A stretch of DNA of 64,000 bases from a virus, in IMG/VR virus record IMGVR_UViG_3300032236_001478, positions 17,624-81,623 of that record, one strand, 5' to 3'. Position numbers and translations under genes: made by a program. The notes under the pieces were generated by a model. That model worked only from the letters and a program-made list of their open reading frames with translations, was not told the DNA's origin and searched no databases. This document shows positions 1,740 to 64,000 of the stretch, in pieces; position 1 is the first letter of the stretch, and the number at the start of each line of letters is the position of its first letter.

Positions 1740-1747
1740 TATTTATA
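1740..1747 (+). promoter_or_regulatory. Putative late promoter TATTTATA (portal)
   Basis: Motif recurs on the coding strand upstream of 18 genes, mostly structural. Here it is 6 nt before the ATG. Confidence 0.7.
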
Positions 1748-25330: not shown

Positions 25331-25363
25331 TATAAATATCAAATGATACGAAAGATATTTATA
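25331..25363. promoter_or_regulatory. Back-to-back divergent late promoters
   Basis: TATAAATA at 25331-38 (= TATTTATA on -) and TATTTATA at 25356-63 on +, each upstream of its own gene. Confidence 0.7.
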
Positions 25364-37473: not shown

Positions 37474-37986
37474 ATGAATAACAAATTACCAATCACCCGT
37501 TTAGGTAAGTTTTTCTCTAACGAAGACTTTGATTTACAGATACAAATAGGTCAGGAATATTTGAGTGGTGACTTGAATATGAAGCTTGTTTTATTCCGTG
37601 TGGATAGACAAAAGACAAGTAATGATGATGTATATGGTGAAGTTGGGGCTGATGAGATCAAGTATTTCCCTCCAGTTGAGTTTAATGCATTAGTTAGAAT
37701 TGATGCACCAACTAATAAATCATATAAATCTGGTTTAATGAGATACAATGAACCAGGAAATATGACTATATCTGTTTACTTAAAGCAATTAGAAGATTTG
37801 GGTGTTGAAATTAAGTACGGAGATTATATTGGTTATCCTGAAACTGAAGAGAGAATGAGATATTATACAGTTACAAATGACGGTAAGGTTACTTCAGACA
37901 ATAAACACAACTTATTTGGTTATAGACCATATTATAGAACAATAACTTGTACACCAGCACAAGAAAAAGAATTTAGAGGAGTATAA
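37474..37986 (+). CDS. Head completion/neck protein (gp14-like)
   Basis: DDVYGE..., GDYIGY. Located between neck and tail terminator. Late motif TATTTATT at 37463-70. Confidence 0.65.
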   Translation: MNNKLPITRLGKFFSNEDFDLQIQIGQEYLSGDLNMKLVLFRVDRQKTSNDDVYGEVGADEIKYFPPVEFNALVRIDAPTNKSYKSGLMRYNEPGNMTISVYLKQLEDLGVEIKYGDYIGYPETEERMRYYTVTNDGKVTSDNKHNLFGYRPYYRTITCTPAQEKEFRGV

Positions 37987-37987
37987 C

Positions 37988-39220
37988 ATGCCATTACCAA
38001 GAAGAAAAACAGACATACAGATTTACAAGGGTAAAGAGTTGACAGATAGAAGACAGGAGATGTTGAACATGATTACCAAAGAAAACACCTATCTTCCTGA
38101 GCCAATTTTACATGATGACCTAGATAGAGGTATGTTAGATTTCATTAACAATAATTTCAAAATTGTTAGTGATGGTAAAACAATTCCAGTTATACAAAAG
38201 ATTTTAACAATTCAAAGATGGGCGGAAGTTTTAAATAATTGGGAGTTTGCTGATGACGATAATAACATGAAAGTACCTTTTATAGGTATAATCAGAAGAC
38301 CAGATGTTCAACCTGGCACAAATCCATCAATTACAAGAACAATACCACAAAGGTTGCCAGTACACTACGCGACCGTAGCGACTTGGAATGGAACACAAAT
38401 GGGTGCTGACGTTTACAAAATACCTCAGCCCGTAGCGATTGATATTAGCTTTGATGTTACGATTGTGTGTAGTAAAATTAGAGAACTTAATAAGTTGAAC
38501 AAAACTGTAATGCAAATTTTTTCATCTAGACAAGCTTACACAACAGTAAAAGGTCACTATATTCCTATTGTTTTGGAAAAGGTTGAGGATAATTCACCTA
38601 TTGATCAAATTGATGGTCGTAGATTTTATCTACAAAACTATTCGTTTACAATGTTAGGATTTTTAATCGATGAAGAAGAGTTTGAGGTAAAACCAGCCGT
38701 AAGTAGGTTCATGTTACTTACTGAATTTATAAAATCGAATAATTATGCTAAAAAGTTTATCAATAAATTAATTAACATAGTTGTTGCAACATTTAGAGCA
38801 GATGGAATGCAAACCTCATTCAGTGTGGGTGAATCTATAGCAATCCTATTTAATGTGGAAATCAATGGTTTGATACAAGAAAGGGATGTTGACTATTATC
38901 ATATTGTTGGAACATCTAAAATTACTTTTGATACGGCACCATACCAAGGAAGTGTAATTACAATCAAGTATTATGCAGGTAAAAGTAGCGTTCTTATTGA
39001 CAACTATGGTAAACAATTACAAGTTGCGACTGAAAACTTCTATTATAGTGATAGTTTAATATTCCCAACTATAAATGGTATCAATAGTGTTGTAAGTGTA
39101 GACGTTAATGGTATTGCTCAAGAAGAAAATGTTGGATTTGAAATCCATACAGCAACTAGCATCAAATTATTAGCCACACCTTTGGTTGGGTGGAAAGTAG
39201 GTATCACTTACTTATATTAA
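37988..39220 (+). CDS. Tail terminator/sheath stabiliser (gp15-like) with C-terminal beta repeats
   Basis: KIPQPVAIDISFDVTI..SK.RELNKL pattern; two C-terminal V.INGL.Q...DY repeats. Upstream of the sheath. Confidence 0.65.
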   Translation: MPLPRRKTDIQIYKGKELTDRRQEMLNMITKENTYLPEPILHDDLDRGMLDFINNNFKIVSDGKTIPVIQKILTIQRWAEVLNNWEFADDDNNMKVPFIGIIRRPDVQPGTNPSITRTIPQRLPVHYATVATWNGTQMGADVYKIPQPVAIDISFDVTIVCSKIRELNKLNKTVMQIFSSRQAYTTVKGHYIPIVLEKVEDNSPIDQIDGRRFYLQNYSFTMLGFLIDEEEFEVKPAVSRFMLLTEFIKSNNYAKKFINKLINIVVATFRADGMQTSFSVGESIAILFNVEINGLIQERDVDYYHIVGTSKITFDTAPYQGSVITIKYYAGKSSVLIDNYGKQLQVATENFYYSDSLIFPTINGINSVVSVDVNGIAQEENVGFEIHTATSIKLLATPLVGWKVGITYLY

Positions 39221-56240: not shown

Positions 56241-56282
56241 TGAAATTATACATTTTCTGGATATTTATATAAAAAACCAAAT

Positions 56283-56489: not shown

Positions 56490-57158
56490 ATGCTAGAGAA
56501 AAAACTATTAGAAGAAGTAAACAGGTACAAAAGTATTAACAAATACGCAGCGAACCTTTTAAATGAACAAGCGGTACCTCCAGCACCACCAGCAGGTGAT
56601 GAACCAGGCGCAACACCTCCAGCTGAGGATGCTCCGGCTCCAGGTTTAGGTGGTGACGTACCACCAGCAGGAGAAGCTGCGCCAGAAGCAACAGACATGC
56701 CACCAGCTACAGGTGCAACTGAAGATAACTCAACAGAAGAAGTTGATATTACTGATTTAGTTAATATGACTAAAAATATCAAAAAAGAATTAGAAACTAA
56801 TAAAACAGATAATAGCGGTGTTATTAGTAAAATGGACGATGTATTCAATAAAATAACAGAATTAGAAGGTAAGTTAGGCGAAATGGATAACATTATTGCT
56901 AAGATTGATCAACTAGGTGTTAAAATTGAAGAAATGAAACCAAAATCTCCAGTTGAGAAACTTGAAATGCGTTCTTTGGATTCATATCCATTTAACGAAA
57001 AACCAGACCAATTTTTTACACAAAAACAAGCAGAAATGCAAGCAAGTGGTAAAAATGAATATGTTTTGACTAAAGATGATGTAACTAATTATTCTAGAGA
57101 TCAAATCGCTAAAACTTTTACTCCAAACCAAGATGACGAATATGAAGCTAGGTACTGA
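56490..57158 (+). CDS. Hypothetical protein, putative head-internal
   Basis: N-terminal KLLEEVNRYKSI...LLNE, Pro/Ala-rich region, coiled coil, KLEMRSLDSYPFN. Confidence 0.7.
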   Translation: MLEKKLLEEVNRYKSINKYAANLLNEQAVPPAPPAGDEPGATPPAEDAPAPGLGGDVPPAGEAAPEATDMPPATGATEDNSTEEVDITDLVNMTKNIKKELETNKTDNSGVISKMDDVFNKITELEGKLGEMDNIIAKIDQLGVKIEEMKPKSPVEKLEMRSLDSYPFNEKPDQFFTQKQAEMQASGKNEYVLTKDDVTNYSRDQIAKTFTPNQDDEYEARY

Positions 57159-57516
57159 TATTCATGATTTGATGGAATACCATCAACAAATTAAAATTTT
57201 ACATTGGCAAACCGAAGGTTATGCTAGACATAAAGCATTTGATAGTGCTTATGAAGAATTAGGTGATTTAATTGATAAATTTGCTGAAGTTGCTATGGGC
57301 AAATATGGTAGATTTGTATTAGAAAATAATGACAAATCATTAAAACTTAAAAATTTATCAGAAATTCACATTATTGATTTCTTACAAGAGATAAAACATT
57401 TTCTAATTGGACTTACAGATGAGTATGACCAAAGAAAGGATAGTGATTTATTAAACATTAGAGATGAAATGTTAGGTGAGATTAATCAATTGGTTTACTT
57501 ACTTACATTAAAGTAA
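57142..57516 (+). CDS. Ferritin-like/Dps-related protein (DUF5856-like)
   Basis: IKILHWQT..YARHKAFD..YEELGDLIDKFAE...G and LLNIRDEMLGEINQLVYLLTL. Confidence 0.75.
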   Translation: MKLGTDIHDLMEYHQQIKILHWQTEGYARHKAFDSAYEELGDLIDKFAEVAMGKYGRFVLENNDKSLKLKNLSEIHIIDFLQEIKHFLIGLTDEYDQRKDSDLLNIRDEMLGEINQLVYLLTLK

Positions 57517-57538
57517 AAAAATATTTTAAAAATAATTG

Positions 57539-57567
57539 AGGCTTGATTTTGAAATCAGGCCTTTTTT
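57539..57567 (+). terminator. Intrinsic terminator overlapping the SSB promoter
   Basis: AGGCTTGATT-ttga-AATCAGGCCT followed by T5. Confidence 0.85.
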
Positions 57568-57578
57568 ATGTATATTAG
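57548..57578 (+). promoter_or_regulatory. Host-type promoter of the replication operon
   Basis: TTTG-N19-TATATTAG; the -33 box lies in the terminator loop. Confidence 0.65.
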
Positions 57579-57618
57579 TATCCATAGTCACTTATTAATT
57601 AATTTAAATGTAAAAAGT

Positions 57619-58467
57619 ATGTCAGTTTTAGACTCAGTACTAGCACAGTACGAAAAAAACAAACAAGGTGCCAATGCAGGACCTAAAGTAAGTTCAGAAG
57701 AAAGATTAAAGAAGTATTTTGCACCAATCTTACAAGGTGGTAAAACTTCAGGCGAAAAAAGAATTAGAATTTTACCAACTAAAGATGGTTCAACTCCATT
57801 TAAAGAAGTTTGGTTCCACGAAATTCAAGTGGACGGCAAATGGGTAAAATTATATGACCCAGGAAAAAACGAAGGTAAGCGTTCACCTTTAAACGAGGTT
57901 AATGAAGCTTTACGTAGTACTGGTGTTGAGCAAGACAGAGAATTAGCAAAAACATATAATCCTAAAAGATTTTATGTATTAAAAGTTATTGATCGTGATA
58001 ACGAACAAGACGGTGTTAAATTTTGGAGATTTAAACACAACGCAAAAGGTGAAGGTGTTTTAGATAAAATTATTCCTATTTGGAAAAACAAAGGAGATAT
58101 TACAGACCCAGATAAAGGTCGTGATTTAATTATCTCTTTATCTTTAACTAAAAACCCTAAGGGTGGTGAGTATACAAATATCTCATCTATTTTCCCTGAT
58201 GATGCGTCATTATTAAACGCTGACACAGCAAAAGCTGAAGAGTGGTTAAATGATGAATTAACTTGGGCAGACGTTTATTCTAAAAAACCAGAAGAATACT
58301 TAGAAGGTATTGCTAAAGGTTATGTTCCTAAGTGGAGCACTGACGCTAAGAAATGGATTTGGGGTGAAGAAGCTGAAGCTGCTGACTTAGGTGCGGCAAC
58401 AGCATCTGCGGCAATCGTTGCAGACCCACAAGTTGAAGAAGATGTAGATGAAGATCTTCCTTTCTAA
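57619..58467 (+). CDS. ssb: Single-stranded DNA-binding protein (T4 gp32-like)
   Basis: RIRILP...PF..VWFH, KVIDRD....GVKFW.F, DITDPDKGRD, acidic DEDLPF tail. Start at MSVLDSVLAQY. Confidence 0.88.
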   Translation: MSVLDSVLAQYEKNKQGANAGPKVSSEERLKKYFAPILQGGKTSGEKRIRILPTKDGSTPFKEVWFHEIQVDGKWVKLYDPGKNEGKRSPLNEVNEALRSTGVEQDRELAKTYNPKRFYVLKVIDRDNEQDGVKFWRFKHNAKGEGVLDKIIPIWKNKGDITDPDKGRDLIISLSLTKNPKGGEYTNISSIFPDDASLLNADTAKAEEWLNDELTWADVYSKKPEEYLEGIAKGYVPKWSTDAKKWIWGEEAEAADLGAATASAAIVADPQVEEDVDEDLPF

Positions 58468-58481
58468 TTTGAAATAACTAT

Positions 58482-58507
58482 GCATGGGGATAAAACCCCA
58501 TGCTTTT
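58482..58507 (+). terminator. Hairpin/terminator between ssb and uvsX
   Basis: GCATGGGG-ataaaa-CCCCATGC-TTTT. Confidence 0.75.
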
Positions 58508-58528
58508 AAAAAATGTAAACGTAAAATA

Positions 58529-59530
58529 ATGGCAGGTATTAAAAAAACAGACTTTTCTTCAATAAAGAAAAAGTTTTCTAAAGAGGCAGAATATAAACCA
58601 GATCGTTTTTTAGATTTAGGTGATGCTTTTTTAAATGCAACTGGTCTTCCAGGTCCAGCAATAGGTCATATTAATATGTTTTTAGGTCACTCAGATACTG
58701 GTAAAACAACTGCACTTGTAAAAGCTGCTGTTGATGCACAAAAGAAAGGTATCTTACCTATTTTCATTATTACTGAACAAAAATGGAGTTGGGAACACGC
58801 AGTATTAATGGGATTTAATAAAGAAGATGATTTCTACTTATTTAACAGTGATTTTGAATACATTGAACAAATCACAGATTATATCAATGAAGTTTTAGAC
58901 GCACAAGATAAAGGTGAATTACCTCACGATATTTTATTCGTTTGGGATTCAGTTGGTTCAGTGCCTTGTAAAATGACATATGACGGTAAAGGTGGTAAAC
59001 AACACAATGCATCTGTATTATCAGATAAAATCGGTATGGGTATTAACCAACGTATATCTGGTTCAAGAAGAACTGATAAACAATATACAAATACATTGAT
59101 TATTGTAAATCAGCCTTGGGTTGAATTACCTGATAATCCTTTTGGACAACCAAAAATCAAAGCTAAAGGCGGTGAATCAATCTGGTTAAACTCAACATTA
59201 GTATTCCGTTTTGGAAACGAAAAAAATGCTGGTACAACTAAGATTAAAGTAACCAAGAATGGTAGAGAATTAAACATAGCTACAAGATCTAAAATTGTAA
59301 TTATGAAAAACCACGTAAACGGTATCGCGTTTAGTGATGGTAAGATTATGGTAACCCCACATGGTTTCATGAATGCAAGAGACAATGATGAGGAGAAAAA
59401 ATCTAGAGAAACTTATGTTAAAGAAAACCTTGCATATATTAGTGAAATATATACAAGAGCATTTAACGATAAGATCAGCGATGCAAGTGAACTTGATTTC
59501 AAAATAGAGTCATCTGGTGATGACGAATAA
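58529..59530 (+). CDS. uvsX: RecA/UvsX-like recombinase
   Basis: GHSDTGKTT, FVWDSVGS, IVNQ, KGG, KNHVNG. Start MAGIKK after the hairpin. Confidence 0.9.
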   Translation: MAGIKKTDFSSIKKKFSKEAEYKPDRFLDLGDAFLNATGLPGPAIGHINMFLGHSDTGKTTALVKAAVDAQKKGILPIFIITEQKWSWEHAVLMGFNKEDDFYLFNSDFEYIEQITDYINEVLDAQDKGELPHDILFVWDSVGSVPCKMTYDGKGGKQHNASVLSDKIGMGINQRISGSRRTDKQYTNTLIIVNQPWVELPDNPFGQPKIKAKGGESIWLNSTLVFRFGNEKNAGTTKIKVTKNGRELNIATRSKIVIMKNHVNGIAFSDGKIMVTPHGFMNARDNDEEKKSRETYVKENLAYISEIYTRAFNDKISDASELDFKIESSGDDE

Positions 59531-59543
59531 ATGTAAAATTTAA

Positions 59544-60560
59544 ATGTCCGTATTACTTGTCGATGGAGATAATTTACTCACGATTGGTTTCTTTGGCCGC
59601 AAAAACTATTTCTATAAAGGAAAACATTTTGGCGGAATCTATCATTTCATTGACACTCTTAGGATGTCTTTTGAAACATACCAACTAGATAAGATCTGCG
59701 TGTTTTGGGATGGTGATGATGGTTCACTCTCACGCAAAAAGATATACCATTTATATAAGGAAAATCGTAAATCGAACAGATGGACTGATGAGGCCCAAAG
59801 TTCTTACGATTATCAAAGATCTAGGATAAAACAATACTTAGAGGAGTTATATATACGTCAAGGGGAGTTTCCAAATTGTGAGGCTGATGATTGTATAGCT
59901 TATTATTGTCAAAATTCGCCAAAAGAGAAAAAAATTGTCTATTCATCTGATAGAGATTTAGCTCAATTAGTGAGTGATAATACTAAATTATATAATCCTG
60001 CCCATCGCAAGTTATATGGTACTAACGATATTATTGAATATGACCATGAAAACATCTTAATTGAAAATGTTAAATTAGTTAAGATGTTATGTGGTGATCC
60101 ATCAGATAACATATATGGAATTAAGAATTTCGGTATTAAACGTTTTATTGCGTTATTTCCAGAAATACAAACACAAGCACTTACCTTAGAAGAAGTGCAA
60201 GAAAAAACAAATGTTCTATTTGAACAAGACAAGCACAACAAAACAATCCAAAACATTTTAACTGGTGTAACTAAATTAGGAGTTTTCGGGCAAGAATTTT
60301 ACGATATTGCAAAAAAAATCGTAGATTTAACTGAGCCAATCTTAACTGATGAAGCTAAAGAAAATATCAATTTATTAATTAAAGATTCACTAGATCCGGA
60401 AGGGCGTTCATATAAAAATACAATGAAATTAATGATGGAAGACGGTATTTTTACCGTTTTACCTAAATCAGATGATGCCTGGACAAAATTTTTAAACCCA
60501 TTTCTCAGGTTAACAAGAAAAGAGAAGAATAATCGTATTGTAAAATTTAAAATTAAGTAA
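59544..60560 (+). CDS. 5'-3' exonuclease/flap endonuclease (T4 RNase H/Pol I N-domain-like)
   Basis: LLVDG, VFWDG, YKENR, EADDCIA, SSDRDLAQL, GDPSDNIYGI. Confidence 0.93.
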   Translation: MSVLLVDGDNLLTIGFFGRKNYFYKGKHFGGIYHFIDTLRMSFETYQLDKICVFWDGDDGSLSRKKIYHLYKENRKSNRWTDEAQSSYDYQRSRIKQYLEELYIRQGEFPNCEADDCIAYYCQNSPKEKKIVYSSDRDLAQLVSDNTKLYNPAHRKLYGTNDIIEYDHENILIENVKLVKMLCGDPSDNIYGIKNFGIKRFIALFPEIQTQALTLEEVQEKTNVLFEQDKHNKTIQNILTGVTKLGVFGQEFYDIAKKIVDLTEPILTDEAKENINLLIKDSLDPEGRSYKNTMKLMMEDGIFTVLPKSDDAWTKFLNPFLRLTRKEKNNRIVKFKIK

Positions 60561-60561
60561 A

Positions 60562-61005
60562 ATGAACATTCAAGAACAAAACAAATTTGAGTTTTTGTTA
60601 ACGTTGGAAAAAAACATTATCTGTCAAAGATATTTCAATGTAAAAGACTACAATCCTGAGAGCAGAAGATCAATGGACCTACACTATTTGGTTAAAGAAA
60701 TTAGTGAAGAAATTAGCTATGATTTGAAAATAAAAAGTTCCAATTATTTGGTCGAAAATCAAAATTATTTTACCAATTCTGCAGTTGTGGATGAGGCAGA
60801 AAATAACGAAGCGCAATACTTTTTATTGCAGATTAAGCAGGGCGATGATGTATTTATTGAAAGAATATTTCCTGCGTATGTGTTCCCTCCTAGAATTAGA
60901 TATGCGGTAGATATTCGTCCTAGTTTAAGACGCATTTTGGCAGATTTAACAGACGTTATGTCACGTCAAGAACTAGAAACTACGTACCTTCAGTACGATT
61001 TATAA
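60562..61005 (+). CDS. Hypothetical protein in the replication operon
   Basis: 147 aa; NIICQRYFNV, PPRIRYAVDIRP. Confidence 0.75.
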   Translation: MNIQEQNKFEFLLTLEKNIICQRYFNVKDYNPESRRSMDLHYLVKEISEEISYDLKIKSSNYLVENQNYFTNSAVVDEAENNEAQYFLLQIKQGDDVFIERIFPAYVFPPRIRYAVDIRPSLRRILADLTDVMSRQELETTYLQYDL

Positions 61006-61029
61006 AATTAATGTAAAGTAATAAGAATT

Positions 61030-62417: not shown

Positions 62418-63389
62418 ATGAAAGAGAAAATTTTAATTGAAAACCCGTATCGATTTGTATTATTTCCAATTGAACATGAGGATATTTGGAAGTTATATAA
62501 ACAACAAGAGGCGTGTATTTGGACTGCTGAAGAAATTGATTTGAGCCAGGATATCTCAGATTGGGAAAACAAGTTAAATGCCGATGAACAACACTTTATC
62601 AAACATGTATTAGCATTTTTTGCTGCATCTGATGGAATTGTTAATGAAAATATTGCACAGAATTTTGTAAATGAAGTTCAATATACTGAGGCGAAAATGT
62701 TTTATGGTTTTCAAATTATGATGGAAAATATTCATAGTGAAACTTATTCATTATTAATTGATTCATATATTAAAGACAAGGAAGAACAAATGCGTTTGTT
62801 CCATGCTATTGACACTATTCCAGCAATCATGGAAAAAGCAGAATGGGCTGTTAAATGGATTAATTCAAAATCATTTGTAGAAAGATTAATTGCTTTTGCG
62901 GCAGTTGAAGGAATATTCTTCTCAGGTTCATTTTGTTCAATTTTCTGGTTAAAGAAAAGAGGATTGATGCCTGGTTTAACATTCTCAAATGAATTGATTT
63001 CTCGTGATGAAGGTATGCATTGTGATTTTGCTTGTCATTTATATAACAACCATATTGAAGGAAAATTAAGTGAGAAAAAAATTAAAGAAATTATTTGTGG
63101 CGCTTTAGAAATTGAAAAGAAATTTATATTAGAGGCATTACCAGTAAGATTAATTGGTATGAATTCTGATTTAATGTCACAATATCTTGAATTTGTAACA
63201 GATAGATTATTAGTTTCGTTAGGTTGTTCTAAACAATACAATTCAAGTAACCCATTTGATTTTATGGAAAACATTGCAATTCAAGGTAAAACTAATTTCT
63301 TTGAAAAGAGAGTAGCAGAGTATCAAAAAGCAGGGGTACATAATGCGTCAGAAGATTTAGAATCTGCATTTGGCGATATTGATTTTTAA
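62418..63389 (+). CDS. nrdB: Ribonucleotide reductase class Ia beta subunit
   Basis: [57 protein letters not shown] (eukaryote-like/Bacteroidota subtype). Confidence 0.97.
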
Positions 63390-63407
63390 AAAAATAGATT
63401 TAATAAA

Positions 63408-64000
63408 ATGAAAGTAAAAAAAAGAGATGGTAGCCTCGAAGAGATGAGGTATGACAAAATTACTAGAAGAATTAGCGCTTTATGTGATGATTTAAACTTA
63501 GAATATATTGACCCAACATTTGTTACGTTAAAAGTAACATCTGGTATATATGATGGTATATCTACAACAGAATTAGATACACTTGCGGCTGAAATTGCTG
63601 CATCTATGGTGACAACACATCCGGATTATGCAAAATTAGCTGGTAGATTAGCCGTTTCTAATTTACATAGAACAACTCCTAAAAAATTCTCACAGTGCAT
63701 TAAAGAATTATATTCTTTTATTGAACCAAAAACTGGAAAAGAATCTTCTTTGATTTCAGATGAACTTTATGAGTTTGTATTAGCAAACAAAGAGGCGTTA
63801 GATGGCGCAATTGTGTTAGATAGAGATTTAGATTTCGATTATTTTGGTTTTAAAACTCTTGAAAGATCTTATCTATTAAAAGTAGGTAAAAGAATAGTGG
63901 AAAGACCACAATATATGTACATGAGAGTTGCTGCAGGTATTTGTAAAGGTGATGTAGAAATGGCAATTCGTATTTATAACGATTTATCACAACATTTTTA
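63408..64000 (+). CDS. nrdA: Ribonucleotide reductase class Ia alpha subunit with ATP cone, 3'-truncated
   Basis: Hand translation: MKVKKRDG...DKITRRI...HPDYAKLAGRLAVSNLH...FDYFGFKTLERSYL...ERPQYMYMRVA. Confidence 0.96.
   Translation, partial: MKVKKRDGSLEEMRYDKITRRISALCDDLNLEYIDPTFVTLKVTSGIYDGISTTELDTLAAEIAASMVTTHPDYAKLAGRLAVSNLHRTTPKKFSQCIKELYSFIEPKTGKESSLISDELYEFVLANKEALDGAIVLDRDLDFDYFGFKTLERSYLLKVGKRIVERPQYMYMRVAAGICKGDVEMAIRIYNDLSQHF

Follow-up and report, generated by a model that had tools for sequence, protein, structure and literature searches.

Four AUG-UAA octamers before the replication genes of a giant phage, a lineage-specific anomaly and candidate set of upstream start-stops

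Start-stops, in which a start codon is followed immediately by a stop codon so that no peptide can be made, have been described in E. coli (yecJ and a site internal to hslR), in Arabidopsis (NIP5;1, AUGUAA) and in human 5' untranslated regions (UTRs). They adjoin a real initiation site, and their known effect is a mild attenuation of the main open reading frame (ORF); in E. coli yecJ, a reporter was expressed 16% more strongly once the start-stop AUG had been removed (bioRxiv 10.1101/520783). The octamer AATGTAAA, a start codon and an immediate stop codon with the identical AUG-UAA core, recurs in a stretch of viral DNA of 64,000 nucleotides (nt), hereafter the window, which is the final 64 kb of an 81,623-bp IMG/VR viral contig (IMGVR_UViG_3300032236_001478). 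Its four intergenic copies precede the genes ssb, uvsX, exo (a 5'-3' exonuclease) and dnaB. The E. coli start-stops lie within genes and have Shine-Dalgarno (SD)-like sequences upstream, whereas here four identical copies stand in leaders between the cistrons of a single phage operon, in an SD-blind setting. We put at roughly 35% the probability that the four copies are lineage-specific upstream start-stop mini-ORFs in the RNA of one replication operon. A lineage-specific cis-element, probably acting at the level of RNA, is the best reading of these sites and an unproven one. No description of a start-stop regulon in a bacterial virus was found in the literature searched.

Two kinds of operator in T4-like phages also invite comparison. 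Like the octamer sites, the operators of RegA in T4 and RB69 are A/U-rich and free of structure, include an AUG preceded by an A-tract, and are situated at start codons or just 5' of them. RegA acts on several early and middle genes, the named targets including the clamp and clamp-loader genes 44 and 45, and the octamer sites resemble the sequence ...UUAUGUAA that won a SELEX experiment (PMC3014915). However, T4 RegA sites usually take in the true AUG and share no fixed sequence, whereas the sequence here is a fixed octamer that ends 4-12 nt upstream of it. The second system is the autogenous operator of T4 gene 32, which is similar in that the first gene behind an octamer here encodes a gp32-like SSB and has an unstructured, A/U-rich leader of UUAA(A) repeats. 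It differs in that the A/U tract alone is present, with no upstream pseudoknot or stable fold, in that the octamer also stands before three other genes, and in that a word containing G is not needed for cooperative binding by gp32. The repeats of the ssb leader (TTAATTAATTTAAAT) occupy positions 57597-57611, and the word TTTAAAT is kept in the ssb leaders of relatives.

The plus strand of the 81.6-kb contig carries five copies of AATGTAAA, all inside 57607-61017 and four of them intergenic (Table 1). An earlier note on this DNA had described the octamer shortly before the four gene starts, a stop-ATG-TAA reading straight after uvsX, and no copy before any structural gene. All of its coordinates and ATG-to-ATG distances hold, the stop-ATG-TAA reading was seen, and the octamer occurs in no other leader of the 82 genes called on the contig. 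The longest ORFs of ssb and uvsX begin at in-frame ATGs at 57568 and 58484, within a terminator T-run or hairpin, and the alignment of orthologues favours the downstream starts used here. The identities of the genes were confirmed as a gp32-like SSB (PF08804), a UvsX-like recombinase, a 5'-3' exonuclease (PF02739) and a DnaB-like helicase; orf147, between exo and dnaB, encodes a 147-amino-acid protein without known function. The spacers measure 13 nt between uvsX and exo, 1 nt between exo and orf147, and 24 nt between orf147 and dnaB. The A on either side of AUGUAA is identical in all four copies, and three of the four have an additional upstream A; no longer repeat or cassette was found to surround the octamer. 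The RNA around each copy is predicted to be unstructured, no RNA structure common to the leaders was found, and the ssb leader folds no better than its shuffles (z = +0.96). The anatomy given in the earlier note is right: an AUG-UAA stands in SD-free, A-rich and unstructured leaders of consecutive replication genes. Its account of orf147, the gene in between, stands in part. The exact copy in the early coding region is present, and is probably a coding coincidence; in the relative L141 the octamer recurs with similar surroundings, ...ttcAATGTAAAggac..., at a site that we infer to belong to its orf147 homologue. The near copy ATTGTAAA was correctly located, but it lies within the coding end of exo, whose stop codon is at 60558-60560, and not in a free leader. 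A complementary site of the small-RNA type was also considered and rejected, the five minus-strand copies being in coding sequence or 130 nt 5' of a gene, with no sign of function.

The contig (31% G+C; CheckV completeness 26%) is a piece of a giant phage genome, since its relatives span 217-316 kb. Its host appears to be of the Bacteroidota type, without SD pairing, and SD sequences are lacking in the contig's leaders. A rare SD-like sequence, GAGGAG (within 37969-37987), stands 7 nt 5' of an ATG at 37988. The octamers probably lie in the leader and intercistronic RNA of one operon mRNA, because a promoter pattern recurs before ssb and only rarely before the downstream genes. In this phage, copy 1 would be inside the transcript because the promoter-like site TTTG-N19-TATATTAG lies upstream of it. 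This site overlaps the terminator hairpin (57538-57563) that follows the dps-like gene, and the promoter-like site of ssb also appears in a sigma-70 scan as TTGAAA-16-TATATT (10/12). In relatives, a loose form of the TTTG-N19-TATATTAG pattern is found 5' of ssb in 22/93 cases, against 0-2 of about 50-100 for each of the operon's other genes, and the -7-like block before ssb is widely conserved. No sigma-70-like promoter was scored at the uvsX, exo and dnaB octamer sites.

If the octamers are start-stops, an operon RNA comprising ssb, uvsX, exo, orf147, dnaB, nrdB and nrdA would be translated in an SD-blind host, where any AUG left accessible by an unstructured, A-rich leader could take up a ribosome. 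The toeprint of a ribosome lies at +15/16 from the start codon. Since a ribosome on the upstream AUG would cover about 15 nt downstream, the true AUG, 11-19 nt away, would be covered or directly adjoined. Termination would follow at once, and the four cistrons would be expected to undergo mild attenuation, or possibly to receive ribosomes by a hand-off. The element's origin would be confined to this lineage, and start-stops suit a recent, lineage-specific origin because they need no new trans-acting factor. The octamer and its placement, the absence of RNA structure, the restriction to one lineage and the avoidance of upstream AUGs are observations; transcription of the sites, initiation by ribosomes on them and the direction of any effect we infer. 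It is a tentative proposal that a giant phage recently evolved four identical AUG-UAA throttles on the SSB, recombinase, exonuclease and helicase cistrons. Such throttles would exploit the reading of any accessible AUG, the same feature on account of which upstream AUGs are purged elsewhere in the family.

The comparison with relatives rests on 158 related loci with UvsX identities of 67-83% and exonuclease identities of at most 77%, counted per gene as distinct orthologous leaders (about 80-100 per gene), and on two large relatives, one of 316 kb (95% complete) and one of 217 kb (G002, 65% complete), the latter syntenic with the entire fragment. AATGTAAA is found in the orthologous leaders of ssb in 0/79 cases, uvsX in 1/93, exo in 0/98, orf147 in 0/88 and dnaB in 0/86, and start-stops of any kind are nearly absent from them. 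In G002, the octamer occurs in 1/206 leaders and start-stops occur in 5/206, scattered. The earlier note had proposed a post-transcriptional regulon for replisome stoichiometry; by the note's own criterion, absence of the motif from relatives' orthologous leaders, a family-level regulon is refuted, and the octamer would be at most a private signal of one lineage. The part that survives, a lineage-specific anomaly of four immediately stopped upstream AUGs, appears compatible with a start-stop or with a repressor site. No RNA dataset is listed as containing this stretch. Contigs of three DNA runs revealed the source sample and, in a microbial-mat metagenome of a different study, short, low-depth contigs about 98% identical to the phage (57615-60479), with the leaders outside their coverage; a near-identical strain of the phage thus exists elsewhere. 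A metagenome scan using the exonuclease found no relative closer than 77% exonuclease identity, a GenBank collection of phages gave zero matches, and scans of viral contigs for the exact patterns of the exo and ssb leaders matched only loci without detectable homologues of those genes. Before ORFs of relatives, 49 occurrences of AATGTAAA were examined as a possible replication leader motif and set aside, as they either belong to exonuclease coding sequence or form the 5' arm of the hairpin TGTAAAC/GTTTACA that precedes the dps-like gene.

Compared with its real relatives, the phage is an outlier and the octamer is a lineage-specific anomaly. Its five leaders contain TGTAAA five times and GTAAA seven times, versus 0-1 in each of 82 relatives, and a G/C-containing 8-mer common to at least four leaders is found in 0/72 distinct leader sets of relatives, where the recurring words are of the A/C type (for instance, TAAAAACA). 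The phage family avoids upstream AUGs in its leaders. At positions -21 to -1, the ratio of ATG to GAT is 10/21 in the phage's other 78 leaders and 23/46 in G002 (about 0.5), and an upstream ATG is present in orthologous leaders of ssb in 0/79 cases, uvsX in 2/93 and dnaB in 4/86. This avoidance agrees with the under-representation of AUG at -21 to -1 in Bacteroidetes (PMC6847099). Four upstream AUGs in consecutive leaders, each with an immediate UAA and identical flanks, are hard to obtain by independent drift, and we regard drift alone as unlikely; given the many windows and many possible patterns that were scanned, chance is still a live, if doubtful, reading.

The start-stop reading draws its support from the exact AUG-UAA 11-19 nt before the true starts of four replication genes and from its presence in four of five consecutive leaders, as against the 5/206 scattered start-stops of G002. 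Several observations weigh against it. With a position weight matrix of the phage's start contexts, the upstream AUG of ssb alone is start-like and the other three score as random ATGs. The identical flanking As hint at a recognition element longer than the 6 nt that a start-stop requires, and the near copy before orf147 carries no AUG. The octamer is conserved in no relative at 67-83% UvsX identity, its enrichment in leaders is insignificant after correction over all 8-mers, and purifying selection on it cannot be demonstrated because closer relatives are absent from the collections searched.

The within-genome statistical evidence is mixed, and it bears on a possible, rather unlikely, alternative in which the octamers have no function and arose by coincidental drift in spacers that are short, A/T-rich and under weak constraint, tolerated through the immediate stop and noticed post hoc. 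Window-wide, AATGTAAA is not enriched (9 copies on both strands versus 13.7 expected). Among leader 8-mers it is found in 4/82 leaders with a per-word Poisson p of 0.003, but in 98.5% of Markov-generated leader sets some 8-mer scores equally well or better, so that the enrichment over an A-rich leader background considered in the earlier note is not significant family-wise. Some 8-mer in at least four of five consecutive leaders, by comparison, is found in 2-3% of null sets, and the example words listed are all pure A/T. A coincidence also accords with the lack of AATGTAAA in the orthologous leaders of relatives and with the two further copies that coding accounts for (N-V-K and I-V-K). One-mismatch A/T variants such as AATTTAAA are present in 33/79 ssb and 19/86 dnaB leaders of relatives, so a single T-to-G change can make AATGTAAA, and a stop directly behind an accidental start mitigates its harm (Meydan et al.). 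Conversely, drift would have to supply four independent events, each counter to the family-wide avoidance of upstream AUGs, and no longer repeat is present through which the word could have spread from one site to another. With start-stops in 2.4% of leaders, as in G002, at least four of five consecutive leaders would carry one in about 1/10,000 such genomes (our own arithmetic), and both the excess of TGTAAA and the lack of any comparable G/C-containing word in relatives' leader sets also speak against coincidence.

The same identical flanks give a common word of 8-9 nt, (A)AAUGUAAA, which exceeds what a start-stop needs and would suit the binding of a lineage-specific, trans-acting protein to single-stranded RNA. 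The protein might be a RegA-like repressor of ribosome loading or an endoribonuclease with cleavage sites between the cistrons. The sites are unstructured, A/U-rich, AUG-containing and immediately 5' of replication-gene starts, as T4 RegA operators are, and the dnaB leader AAAAUUAAUGUAAA is similar to both the T4 RegA SELEX consensus aaAAUUGUUAUGUAA and the rIIB site AAAAUUAUGUAC (PMC3014915). The AUG-less near copy ATTGTAAA likewise suits a protein site better than a start-stop. However, no match to PF01818 (RegA), the family behind the repressor suggested in the earlier note, was found at E<=10 in the 81.6-kb fragment, which is about 26% of the genome and bounds the search for a trans-acting factor, or at E<=1 in the 316-kb and 217-kb relatives. 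The nrd genes aside, nearly all genes of the fragment have a homologue in G002, which lacks the motif, and the fragment-specific ORFs are two only (64 and 65 amino acids), with no Pfam match above the cut-off. We regard a protein or ribonuclease site as improbable.

At the level of DNA, the closest parallel is the T4-type late promoter (TATAAATA) and its counterpart in this family, TATTTATA, which is the reverse complement of the T4 sequence. TATTTATA is the top leader 8-mer of the contig (14/82 leaders, p 3e-11) and also of G002 (26/206). It ends 3-16 nt before the ATG, often directly after a terminator, and the genes behind it include terminase and portal. Conserved across relatives and enriched in leaders, it is a late-box candidate, and if it is a -10-type box, the late mRNAs would be near-leaderless. 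AATGTAAA is like it in being a sense-strand, A/T-rich 8-mer a few nt before the ATG of one functional gene class, and a promoter-like box for a non-late temporal class, with a short-leader transcript for each replication gene, would have the same geometry. A promoter of its own might be needed by uvsX, which lies behind a terminator-like hairpin, and a TATATA-type element is found at the equivalent place in 40/86 dnaB leaders of relatives. Nevertheless, we consider such a box very unlikely. TATTTATA passes on both enrichment and conservation, whereas AATGTAAA passes on neither, and the relatives, which conserve the late box, have no common box in their uvsX, exo and ssb leaders. A new promoter class would also require a new lineage-specific factor. 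The transcription start predicted for the conserved host-type promoter of ssb is about 23 nt upstream of the octamer there, the exo octamer shares bases with the uvsX stop codon, where the spacer is 13 nt, and the other three sites lack a scored sigma-70-like promoter. A kinship of the two octamers through the common skeleton nATnTAnA was considered and judged to carry too little information in A/T-rich leaders.

If ribosomes do read the octamers as start-stops, they would illustrate how gene-by-gene dosage may be tuned within one operon in bacteria that ignore SD sequences, and start-stops, which are known in leaders of eukaryotes and in a few genes of E. coli, would prove open to quick and repeated recruitment by a phage; the operon would then be a natural test bed for the choice of start codon without SD pairing. 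Should they go unread, the case would serve as a caution that a tidy, four-fold A/T-rich leader motif can be private to one genome and fail the comparative test. The comparison also fixed the conserved signals of the phage family, namely the late box TATTTATA, the host-type ssb promoter and the ssb-uvsX hairpin.

Table 1. Octamer copies, neighbouring signals and gene order (positions in the window; gap, distance from the octamer end to the true ATG)
Feature	Position	Strand	Remarks
AATGTAAA copy 1	57607-57614	+	5' UTR; upstream AUG at 57608, 11 nt 5' of ssb ATG (57619); gap 4 nt
AATGTAAA copy 2	58512-58519	+	Upstream AUG at 58513, 16 nt 5' of uvsX ATG (58529); gap 9 nt; right after the ssb-uvsX hairpin and T-run
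AATGTAAA copy 3	59530-59537	+	Upstream AUG 13 nt 5' of exo ATG (59544); gap 6 nt; 59528-59536 reads TAA (uvsX stop)-ATG-TAA
AATGTAAA copy 4	61010-61017	+	Begins 5 nt past orf147 stop; upstream AUG 19 nt 5' of dnaB ATG (61030); gap 12 nt
Exact AATGTAAA in orf147 coding sequence	60637-60644	+	AAT GTA AAA (N-V-K)
Near copy ATTGTAAA	60537-60544	+	3' coding end of exo (I-V-K); 18 nt 5' of orf147 ATG; without AUG
Promoter-like TTTG-N19-TATATTAG	57548-57578	+	5' of ssb; 7/8 match to Bacteroidota -33/-7 consensus
GC-rich hairpin and T-run	58482-58503	+	Between ssb and uvsX; z = -2.7 for the enclosing 101-nt stretch
TATTTATA, late-box candidate	1740-1747		Before portal
TATTTATA, late-box candidate	25354-25361		
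TATTTATA, late-box candidate	56262-56269		More copies in the contig bases before the window
Gene order	57.1-64.0 kb	+	Dps-like, ssb, uvsX, exo, orf147, dnaB, nrdB, nrdA

The hairpin between ssb and uvsX is probably an intra-operon attenuator or an RNA-stabilising hairpin. Relatives have a hairpin and T-run in the equivalent position with differing stem sequences, and in this phage a short A-run follows (to 58511). As an attenuator it may set the ratio of ssb to uvsX, or it may stabilise the 3' end of the ssb mRNA. Further along the operon, dnaB may have an internal promoter of its own. TATATA or ATATAT lies within 25 nt of the ATG in the 40 dnaB leaders of relatives counted above, and exact TATTTATA lies within 50 nt in six. 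In this phage, GATTTATA at 60997-61004 matches 7/8 of the late box, overlaps the orf147 stop and lies 5 nt before copy 4 of AATGTAAA.

Downstream of dnaB, nrdB and nrdA (62418-63998) have no tblastn match anywhere in the otherwise syntenic, 65%-complete G002. Upstream of ssb, about 20 related loci (for instance, L002:3403 and L103:1659) carry TAATGTAAAC...GTTTACA, which forms a hairpin of 7 bp in the space from the orf222 stop to the start of the dps-like gene. In this phage, the orf222 and dps-like genes overlap (57133-57205), and the Dps-like protein has an N-terminal extension.

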